Source: Escherichia phage vB_EcoM_G2540-3
Length of the DNA stretch: 64,000 bases
Reading direction: 5' to 3' (one strand)
Sequence record: MK327944.1
The notes below the pieces were generated by a model. That model had not been told where the DNA came from and searched no databases. It was given only the letters and a program-made list of their open reading frames with translations. Shown here piece after piece: positions 25,620 through 27,358 of this stretch. The first letter of the stretch is position 1. Every line of letters begins with the position of its first letter. Both the position numbers and the translations under genes were made by a program.

Positions 25620-26549
25620 ATGTCAGGATATAATTCTCAGAATCCAAAGGAACTCAAAGATGTCATTCTAAGACGTTTAGGGGCTCCAATTATTAATGTT
25701 GAGTTAACACCCGATCAAATTTATGATTGTATCCAGCGTGCCCTAGAATTATACGGTGAATACCATTTTGATGGACTTAACAAAGGTTTTCATGTATTTT
25801 ATGTAGGAGACGATGAAGAAAAGTATAAGACTGGAGTATTTGATTTAAGAGGTTCTAACGTATTTGCAGTAACTCGCATTTTGCGCACGAATATTGGATC
25901 AATAACGTCAATGGACGGAAACGCTACATATCCATGGTTTACTGACTTTCTTTTAGGAATGGCTGGTATTAATGGCGGTATGGGAACTTCTTGTAATAGA
26001 TTTTATGGACCAAATGCATTTGGAGCTGATTTGGGATATTTTACTCAGCTTACCAGTTATATGGGAATGATGCAAGATATGCTCTCTCCTATTCCAGACT
26101 TTTGGTTTAATTCAGCAAATGAACAGCTCAAAGTAATGGGAAACTTCCAAAAATACGATTTAATTATCGTAGAAAGCTGGACTAAATCATATATTGATAC
26201 AAACAAAATGGTTGGAAATACAGTAGGATATGGAACAGTTGGTCCACAAGATAGTTGGTCATTATCTGAACGATATAATAACCCAGACCATAATTTAGTA
26301 GGTCGTGTAGTCGGTCAAGACCCGAATGTTAAACAGGGCGCTTATAATAATCGTTGGGTGAAAGACTATGCTACTGCTTTAGCTAAAGAATTGAATGGTC
26401 AAATTTTAGCACGTCACCAAGGTATGATGCTTCCTGGCGGTGTTACGATTGATGGACAACGCTTAATAGAAGAAGCTCGATTAGAAAAAGAAGCATTACG
26501 TGAAGAATTATACTTGCTTGACCCTCCGGTGGGAGTGTTAGTTGGATGA
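25620..26549 (+). CDS. 13: neck protein gp13
   Basis: 309 aa, T4 gp13 size. Confidence 0.85.
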
Positions 26550-27358
26550 ATTATACTAAAATTTACAACTCTCTTATAGAAAGATCTCTTAAAAGAGGTC
26601 TTAATAAGAAAAAATTAGATTATTATACAGAATCACACCATATTGTCCCAAAATCCATGGGAGGAGATGACTCTAGAGAAAACAGGGTTTTACTGACAGC
26701 AAGAGAACACTATTTTGCGCATGAGCTTCTTTTTAAAATACACCGAAATTCTGAAATGGCTTATGCCTTAATAAAATTCTCCAAGGGTACAAAAGAGCAG
26801 AGAATTGTAAGTAAAGATTACGGATGGATTAAAGAGGAAACATCTAAAATTAGATCAGAAACAATTAAAAAGTTTTGGGCGAATCTATCACCAAATTTAA
26901 AACAGGAACGAATTAAAAAAGCCGGAAAAGGCATTAAAAAAACTAAATCTTTATGGACAGATGAAAAGAGAAAAGAAGTTAATGCAAATATTCGAAAAGC
27001 TTCTGTGAAATATTTGGAATCGTTATCAGAAAACGAAATGTTAGAATATAAAGAAAGATGTTCTAAACAGATGAAAGATTTTTGGTCTGAGCTTAAAAGT
27101 GACCCCCAAAAATACGAAAAGTATTTAAATAAACTATCTAAGGGTCTTGCAAAAGTCGAAAAGAGAAATTGCCCGCATTGCGGAATTATATGTGATGTAG
27201 GAAATTATGGAAAATACCACGGCGATAAATGCAAAGTTATCACGGGTGTATCTCATAGCAGAGAAAAATTAAAATGCCCGCACTGTTCTAAAATCATGGA
27301 TAAGTCTCACGCTAAAAGATACCATTTTGACAATTGCAAATTTAAGAAGGTCGAATAA
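26546..27358 (+). CDS. free-standing HNH homing endonuclease with C-terminal tandem zinc-ribbon repeats
   Basis: [10 protein letters not shown]...[14 protein letters not shown] is an HNH motif; two CPHC...YH.DxCK repeats; ATGA overlap with gene 13 stop; ends 1 nt before gene 14. Confidence 0.75.

Follow-up and report, generated by a model that had tools for sequence, protein, structure and literature searches.

The closest described counterparts of the genes reported here are the Mob endonucleases of phage T4 and the intron-encoded endonuclease I-TevIII. MobE, whose gene is promoterless, nicks nrdB of phage T2 and shows high-frequency inheritance (PMC2790892). For I-TevIII, Robbins et al. found one zinc per finger and reduced DNA binding and cleavage when either finger was disrupted; the enzyme acts as a dimer with its interface mapped to residues 194-241 (PMC1865063). 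We analyzed a 64,000-nucleotide stretch of the genome of Escherichia phage vB_EcoM_G2540-3 (record MK327944.1), called the window below, and describe two open reading frames (ORFs) in it that are related to these systems. Very likely, ORF1 and ORF2 belong to the Mob (HNH) family of free-standing homing endonuclease genes and owe their spread among T-even phages to homing, cleavage and mobility being predicted from the sequences of the genes, their junctions, and their relatives. T6 and other records already list both genes as homing endonucleases, and our search found no publication characterizing either one.

26546..27358, + strand: ORF1, free-standing HNH homing endonuclease gene, 270 amino acids, between genes 13 and 14
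47226..47918, + strand: ORF2, second free-standing Mob-type HNH endonuclease gene, 230 amino acids

Each gene overlaps the stop codon of the gene before it (gene 13 or uvsW) and ends just 5' of the gene after it (gene 14 or uvsW.1), in agreement with an earlier note on this DNA that had described the two starts and the end of ORF1. The ATG of ORF1 overlaps the gene 13 stop as ATGA (26546-26549), and its TAA (27356-27358) is followed by a single T and then by the gene 14 ATG at 27360. ORF2 starts with a TTG within CTT-TGA, the last three letters of which are the uvsW stop; this start is supported by the family-wide N-terminus MNYxxIY. As the earlier note stated, T4 has no gene at either junction: its genes 13 and 14 are 1 nucleotide apart, and its uvsW and uvsW.1 are adjacent. 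An Rfam scan of the window returned tRNAs as the sole matches and no intron model.

A Mob-type catalytic domain was recognized in both proteins. Pfam HNH_4 matched residues 25-52 of ORF1 with 24.4 bits, over the curated cut-off of 22 bits, and the PHROG 655 family, 'homing endonuclease', was matched by both ORF1 (E value 2.7e-52) and ORF2 (E 3.9e-60), so that the HNH assignment of the earlier note was upheld by profile search. The catalytic core of ORF1 lies as follows.

26630..26722, + strand: ORF1 HNH catalytic core, residues 29-59, inside the Mob-type N-terminal domain (residues 1-111)

Six residues of this core (E29, H31, H32, N46, H55, and H59) show no variation in 72 homologues. An AlphaFold2 (AF2) model of ORF1 built on 72 homologues, with a predicted local distance difference test score (pLDDT) of 92.8, gives the core a predicted strand-strand-helix arrangement (strand 29-32, strand 47-50, helix 52-66). 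Residues 1-111 are 50% identical to T4 MobB, 47% to MobD, and 43% to MobE, and for ORF2 the identity is 50% to MobE and 56% to MobD. BLASTP searches against MobB, MobD, MobE, and MobC gave E values of 3e-35 to 3e-14 for ORF1 and 7e-31 to 2e-18 for ORF2. The N-terminal MNYxxIY... sequence and the HNH core are common to the T4 Mob proteins, ORF1, and ORF2, all of which belong to PHROG 655. The two ORFs themselves share 34% identity over 160 residues (E 2e-23; range 34-38%), which bears out the shared N-termini and HNH core claimed in the earlier note. Its description of the pair as paralogous holds in the sense of family membership; because each ORF resembles the T4 Mob proteins (50%) more than its partner, the pair is not a recent duplication.

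The likeness of ORF1 to the T4 Mob proteins stops near residue 111, and no Mob alignment extends into the zinc-finger region. The remainder of the protein consists of a predicted helical linker and two fingers.

26822..27154, + strand: ORF1 helical linker, residues 93-203, five long helices (AF2 secondary structure, pLDDT 90 or more)
27170..27232, + strand: ORF1 zinc finger 1, C209-x2-C212-x12-H225-x3-C229 (CX2CX12HX3C), aligned to zinc finger 1 of I-TevIII
27275..27337, + strand: ORF1 zinc finger 2, C244-x2-C247-x12-H260-x3-C264 (CX2CX12HX3C), aligned to I-TevIII

Residues 192-267 of ORF1 align with residues 193-266 of I-TevIII of phage RB3 (33% identity, E 2e-7) with both fingers in register (I-TevIII C211/C214 and C242/C245), and they align as well with the C-terminal I-TevIII fragment that remains in the T4 nrdB intron. 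Each finger is predicted in the AF2 model to form a beta-hairpin plus a helix. The earlier note had reported two C-terminal zinc-ribbon repeats; the repeats are present, but they are CCHC fingers of the I-TevIII type and not ribbons. In four site-conserved copies with 51-57% identity, the catalytic residues and all eight zinc ligands, including the four of finger 1, are unchanged. Finger 2 falls in the longest invariant stretch common to the diverged copies, and its ligands C244, C247, H260, and C264 are unchanged in 72 homologues. The catalytic halves of ORF1 and I-TevIII show no significant alignment. With a nuclease domain of the Mob type followed by a DNA-binding domain of the I-TevIII type, ORF1 is therefore a chimera. 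Such an arrangement is frequent in environmental contigs, where 32 of 80 loci encode relatives that have a Mob-type HNH domain together with one or more CCHC-type fingers. NUMOD3 repeats (Pfam PF07460) occur in many ORF1 homologues; ORF1 itself has no Pfam match to NUMOD3. The ORF1 sequence matched no solved structure (best E 0.076), and a Foldseek search of its model against solved structures gave no whole-protein match (best E 0.13), the local matches being to HNH domains (Cas8-HNH and McrA, E above 0.1) or to tandem fingers. NCBIfam holds no model for ORF1.

The boundaries of the ORF1 insertion were examined by comparing 9 genomes that carry the gene with 10 that lack it. The features concerned are the following.

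25620..26549, + strand: gene 13, neck protein gp13, 309 amino acids, host gene 5' of ORF1 (ORF list; 99% identity to T4 gp13; T4 annotation)
27360..28130, + strand: gene 14, neck protein gp14, 256 amino acids, host gene 3' of ORF1 (ORF list; T4 annotation)
26529..26548, + strand: recoded gene 13 tail, codons 304-309 and stop, VGVLVG-stop compared with FGILVG-stop in T4; left edge of the putative mobile cassette (strict linkage to ORF1)
27344..27358, + strand: ORF1 last codons and stop (AAGAAGGTCGAATAA), probable decayed remnant of the original gene 13 tail

Eight fixed differences separate carriers from non-carriers, all of them within nucleotides 910-929 of gene 13 and none upstream. The last 20 nucleotides of the gene read GTGGGAGTGTTAGTTGGATGA in carriers and TTTGGAATTTTGGTAGGTTAA in non-carriers. 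Linkage to ORF1 is gone immediately 5' of this recoded block, and the flanking haplotypes are mosaic up to gene 13 nucleotide 909. A BLAST search with window positions 26499-26549 returned exactly 46 records with at least 90% identity, each of which, among the matches listed, overlaps an endonuclease gene; the other 49 matches fall below 90% (80-85% among the matches listed, with no endonuclease gene there). Carriers and non-carriers show no fixed differences in gene 14 that would mark a co-conversion tract; a partial association with ORF1 was seen at gene 14 nucleotides 79, 258, and 333-372. At its 3' end ORF1 preserves a TAA-T-ATG spacing like that of T4, together with a purine-rich stretch 5' of gene 14. 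In one diverged copy (L070), the endonuclease ends with KLVG-stop, and its last 16 nucleotides through the gene 14 start (TTAGTGGGGTAATATG) are those of the gene 13 tail in a different lineage, L020. The simplest reading of this arrangement is that ORF1 inserted a few codons 5' of the gene 13 stop, bringing with it a recoded tail, and that the C-terminus and stop of ORF1 derive from the original tail that it displaced; in the window copy this remnant has probably decayed. No donor lineage with a gene 13 ending in the exact recoded sequence was present among the 65 Straboviridae loci from IMG/VR that served for wider comparison.

A T6 protein with the annotation 'homing endonuclease', KMB99_gp239, has the same sequence as ORF1 (100% identity). 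Altogether 46 phage records carry ORF1 with 97.8% amino-acid identity or more, beside a neck protein gene in every match listed, and 458 phage records have the uninterrupted T4-type 13/14 junction. Genes 13 and 14 are 3-18 nucleotides apart in nearly all of the IMG/VR loci, and T6 and one metagenome contig are the exceptions that contain ORF1. The three closest non-identical relatives (51-57% identity) lie directly 5' of a gene 14 homologue in diverged T4-like contigs, and the two of these contigs that reach further upstream both place the gene after the end of gene 13. A scan of Joint Genome Institute (JGI) metagenomes for copies at the 13/14 site yielded just the one contig already in IMG/VR, the remaining matches being distant relatives with 27-59% identity. 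Since copies diverged to 51-57% occupy the same junction in diverged phages, the association with the site is old. The earlier note had proposed mobile-element insertions specific to this phage lineage; insertions they are, but the restriction to one lineage did not survive the comparison, as the elements are patchy within Tequatrovirus and diverged copies of ORF1 occur in other T4-like phages.

Other endonuclease genes have used the same junction. GIY-YIG (Seg-like) genes are found between genes 13 and 14 in four further Straboviridae lineages (L031:3427-4062, L040:3500-4084, L068:355-969, and L061:3660-4433), and the occurrence of several endonuclease genes marks the junction as a recurrent landing place. 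In L031, codons 1-4 of gene 14 (MATY; compare the insert-free L034) now open the endonuclease ORF, and gene 14 itself uses a new start. L061 (2978-4572) has duplicated gene 13 fragments and two gene 14 5' ends around its GIY-YIG gene, one of them fused in frame to the endonuclease; these duplications look like scars of illegitimate recombination. A separate irregularity was noted in phage G9062, the closest relative of the window in this region (L162:1811-2368), where gene 14 has an indel, the annotated coding sequence is shortened, and the BLAST match falls into two pieces; the window gene 14, unlike that of G9062, is intact.

The second element has the same design, and here the boundaries are free of ambiguity. 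We aligned 4 genomes with ORF2 and 3 without it, which defined the features listed below.

45721..47229, + strand: uvsW helicase gene, 502 amino acids, host gene 5' of ORF2
47094..47229, + strand: uvsW 3' allele tied to ORF2, consisting of 32 fixed differences (47094-47208) and six recoded final codons and stop (47212-47229, AAAGAGGTTAAACTTTGA) (4 versus 3 genome alignment)
47901..47918, + strand: the five codons and stop that originally ended uvsW (AAAACAGTTAATTTATAA), now the ORF2 C-terminus and stop (same sequence as the end of uvsW in T2, SH7, and T4T, all without ORF2)
47919..47930, + strand: GGGCTTCGGCCC / GGGCUUCGGCCC hairpin with a UUCG tetraloop, between the ORF2 stop codon and the uvsW.1 ribosome-binding site
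47944..48174, + strand: uvsW.1, 76 amino acids, host gene 3' of ORF2

The net insert spans 47212-47900 (689 nucleotides) and begins with the recoded AAAGAGGTTAAACTTTGA that completes uvsW. Phages without ORF2 read TACGTAATG followed by AAAACAGTTAATTTATAA and then GGGCTTCGGCCC, the position of the insert lying between the first and second of these. The 32 fixed differences reach about 115 nucleotides upstream of the recoded tail, and the recoded tail creates a Shine-Dalgarno-like GAGG motif 6 nucleotides 5' of the ORF2 TTG. The GGGCUUCGGCCC hairpin at 47919-47930 is kept in phages with and without the gene. A query with window positions 47080-47229 found 48 records with at least 95% identity, one at 90-95%, and the rest below 90%; among the matches listed, T4-type uvsW alleles align over just ~57% of the query. 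For ORF2 itself, 48 records reached 95% identity or more, among them T6, Yersinia phage PST (where it is annotated mobD), and ACG-C40. Another 22 records hold ORF2-like genes with 60-80% identity; among the matches listed are a Klebsiella and a Salmonella phage at 69%, and in the latter the gene adjoins a DNA helicase gene. The earlier note had called both upstream genes essential, which does not apply to uvsW, a nonessential gene.

ORF2 has the same type of catalytic domain as ORF1 and a different DNA-binding half. Its Pfam HNH match (16.2 bits) is under the curated cut-off of 21.4 bits, yet the same motif is present. It has two NUMOD3 repeats (E 7.6e-14), and its C-terminus weakly matches the I-TevI DNA-binding module.

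The population data bear on the age and function of ORF1. In the same 9 carrier genomes, synonymous diversity was 0.034 for ORF1 and 0.204 for gene 13, a six-fold difference, and third-position diversity was 1.95% for ORF1, 12.6% for gene 13, and 7.6% for gene 14. ORF1 is thus several times younger than the alleles on either side of it, which fits recent spread by homing, as gene conversion predicts. All 9 sampled copies were full length with no stop codons, and the ratio of nonsynonymous to synonymous polymorphism (pN/pS) was 0.15; the ORF1 protein is therefore under purifying selection.

Expression of ORF1 was approached through scans for regulatory signals. The late-promoter consensus TATAAATA does not occur on the + strand of 19212-31305; the same scan located it 5' of segE at 45065-45072. 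Counts from sigma-70-like and terminator-like scans were at chance level. ORF1 is thus a cassette without its own late-promoter consensus inside a late structural block, with the spacing to gene 14 untouched. Promoterless cassettes have been described for several T4 endonuclease genes (PMC2988022; PMC2790892), and by analogy ORF1 is probably expressed by read-through of the late 13-14 transcript. The ATGA overlap suggests that it is probably also translationally coupled to gene 13. Hairpins that hide the ribosome-binding sites were considered as well and were not supported by shuffled controls: the RNA fold at the ORF1 start was no better than shuffled sequence (z -0.5), and that at the ORF2 start was marginal (z -2.0).

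These observations can be assembled into a homing cycle for ORF1. The uninterrupted junction encodes the widely conserved LDPPFGILVG-stop of gene 13 and MATYD... of gene 14. During mixed infection, the ORF1 protein would recognize this junction in a phage that lacks the gene, with its zinc fingers binding near the insertion point and the nuclease nicking or cutting within about 20 base pairs upstream, in the gene 13 tail. Repair by recombination with the carrier genome would then copy the cassette and the recoded tail into the cut genome. The carrier would be immune, its site being split by 809 base pairs and the left half recoded.

Several points weigh against this account. A sweep driven by benefit to the phage, not homing, could give the same low ORF1 diversity. 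The corresponding contrast for ORF2 is weaker, with third-position diversity of 6.6% versus 10.3% in 4 genomes only. The ORF1 3' end in the window resembles the T4 gene 13 tail only weakly, and the tail-duplication model for ORF1 draws on one diverged contig, L070. Moreover, the strict tail linkage is no proof of immunity, because recombination would not easily separate a 20-nucleotide block with 8 mismatches from the gene.

The first of these points belongs to an alternative in which ORF1 was once mobile and has been kept because it benefits the phage, for example by cutting competing T-even genomes in co-infection (interference or marker exclusion), its spread then reflecting selection and ordinary recombination. 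The purifying selection and intactness of the sampled copies are in line with it, it explains the low diversity equally well, and homing endonucleases of phages have recently been reported to affect fitness (PMC11620839, PMC13096335). A large general benefit is, however, difficult to reconcile with the presence of ORF1 in only about 9% of related records, and a fixed insertion site across diverged lineages is what homing predicts. As a replacement for homing we regard this alternative as unlikely; the two are compatible and not mutually exclusive. The same purifying selection speaks against ORF1 being an inactive, decaying remnant carried between genes 13 and 14, as do the invariant catalytic residues and zinc ligands of the four site-conserved copies and the youth of the gene relative to its flanks. 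Defective endonuclease genes do exist in T4 (mobA and I-TevIII), one relative is truncated to 154 residues (P0005), and one unverified record aligns to ORF1 in two pieces; even so, we judge a remnant very improbable. The location of ORF1 in the 13-14-15-16-17 late block also raises the idea of an HNH protein that serves in DNA packaging or in the assembly of virions, comparable to the HNH proteins that accompany the terminase in cos phages; terminase-associated zinc-ribbon HNH proteins have been described (PMC3592412). The 458 related records without ORF1, T4 included, and the identity of the closest characterized relatives, which are Mob endonucleases and I-TevIII and not packaging HNH proteins, leave this idea with almost no credibility. 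In T4-type phages, DNA is packaged by a headful mechanism in which gp16 and gp17 do the cutting. Spread by homing thus remains our preferred interpretation for both genes.

The genomic setting of the two elements is that of a T6-like T-even phage. The region around both ORFs is 96-99% identical in nucleotide sequence to Tequatrovirus (T-even) phages. For the 13/14 region the best match is phage G9062 (98.8%), followed by other T6-like phages, and for the uvsW region the closest full-length matches are T6 (98.2%) and AV121 (98.4%). The T4 gene order is kept, with wac, 13, 14, 15, and 16, and further on inh, segE, uvsW, uvsW.1, and uvsY.-2. A known endonuclease gene flanks uvsW on its other side.

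45101..45718, + strand: segE, GIY-YIG homing endonuclease, 5' of uvsW as in T4 (Pfam SegE_GIY-YIG 3e-9; T4 annotation)

The 5' end of uvsW occurs as two alleles that track segE (window 45721-45732; loci L171, L172, and L173): genomes with segE (the window, T6, ACG-C40, and T4T) start uvsW with ATGGATATTAAA, and those without it (W143, T2, and SH7) start with ATGACTGACATT. With its 5' allele tracking segE and its 3' allele tracking ORF2, the window uvsW is therefore bracketed by endonuclease genes, each with a linked allele of the adjacent gene end. A third type of endonuclease gene in the window is a GIY-YIG Seg-like ORF of 221 amino acids (3602-4267, - strand) that is 33% identical to the window SegE and lies inside a cluster of eight tRNA genes (3526-4880), the position of segB in T4.

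The T4 reference record complicates annotation of the uvsW junction. In NC_000866 (L003:12677-14440) one base is missing, relative to T4T (L174:285-2049), at ...AATTTA-ATAAGC..., and uvsW runs through uvsW.1 as a 587-residue protein; T4T, T2, and SH7, from which it differs by this one base, have separate uvsW (502 amino acids) and uvsW.1 (76 amino acids) genes. The RefSeq label 'DNA helicase' for uvsW.1 perhaps derives, as a guess, from the fused entry. We also considered whether ORF2 splits an ancestral UvsW-UvsW.1 fusion, as mobE of phage Aeh1 splits nrdA, and rejected this, as the UvsW.1 homologues form 75 clusters, every one of them of stand-alone proteins (52-96 amino acids), and the 587-residue UvsW of NC_000866 is a single base away from genomes with two genes.

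Elements of this type are textbook components of T-even phages, their general biology is well understood, and the gain from the present cases is incremental. Free-standing homing endonucleases shape allele survival in T-even co-infection, and only a few have been tested; ORF1, being carried by the classic phage T6, is directly testable, and its sharp 20-nucleotide linked block predicts a narrow region for recognition or cleavage. If our interpretation is correct, it adds a mobile element to the neck-gene block, where T4 has none, and extends the use of the I-TevIII zinc-finger module beyond introns. The independent invasion of the 13/14 junction by GIY-YIG genes in other lineages makes it a likely boundary of genetic exchange. 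New here are the combination of Mob and I-TevIII domains, the shared insertion design with a recoded tail, the population evidence pointing to recent mobility of the 13/14 element, and the recurrent use of that junction by unrelated endonuclease families.

In comparison with known systems, ORF1 and ORF2 share with the T4 mob genes their placement between conserved genes and, in the case of ORF1, the lack of a promoter consensus of its own. The T4 mob genes occupy other sites, near 39/60, a-gt, nrdD/nrdG, nrdC.11, and nrdA/nrdB, and 13/14 and uvsW/uvsW.1 are unoccupied in T4. ORF2 resembles modular endonucleases of the I-HmuI and I-TevI type in having an HNH domain, NUMOD3 repeats, and a weakly I-TevI-like module, and it matches TIGR01453 'group I intron endonuclease' below the model cut-off; unlike those enzymes, it is free-standing and has a Mob-type catalytic domain. 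The neck-gene block of other Straboviridae also contains HNH genes at the 14/15 junction (L056:4198-4860, L066:3163-3777, L061:5133-5720, and L069:1621-2217), a site that is unoccupied in the window (28131-28171). They have in common with ORF1 an HNH core and a C-terminal CPHC...(R/K)(W/Y)HFDNCK finger (CPHC...WHFDNCK in these genes), the HNH region being about 31% and the finger 42% identical, but they differ in their N-terminal extension, their single finger, and their clear NUMOD3-type NPFYGK motifs. A relation to Hef, the HNH endonuclease of phage U5, was rejected (E above 1).

The closest overall counterpart of ORF1 is I-TevIII, encoded in the nrdB group I intron of phage RB3. With 269 residues it nearly equals the 270 of ORF1, and the parts follow in the same order, an N-terminal HNH domain, a linker, and two C-terminal CX2CX12-13HX3C fingers; I-TevIII is intron-encoded in nrdB, whereas ORF1 is free-standing at 13/14. 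The homologous region of ORF1 spans the mapped dimer interface of I-TevIII, and by analogy ORF1 may dimerize. I-TevIII makes a double-strand break with 2-nucleotide 3' overhangs, and ORF1 may either nick like MobE or break both strands like I-TevIII. One possible, though doubtful, reading is that grafting an I-TevIII zinc-finger and dimerization module onto a Mob-type nicking HNH domain produced a dimeric double-strand cutter for the 13/14 junction, and that the recoded tails form part of a general three-in-one insertion device, which would destroy its own target, supply a ribosome-binding site and a start on the new stop of the host gene, and reuse the old tail and stop, leaving the downstream translation signals untouched.

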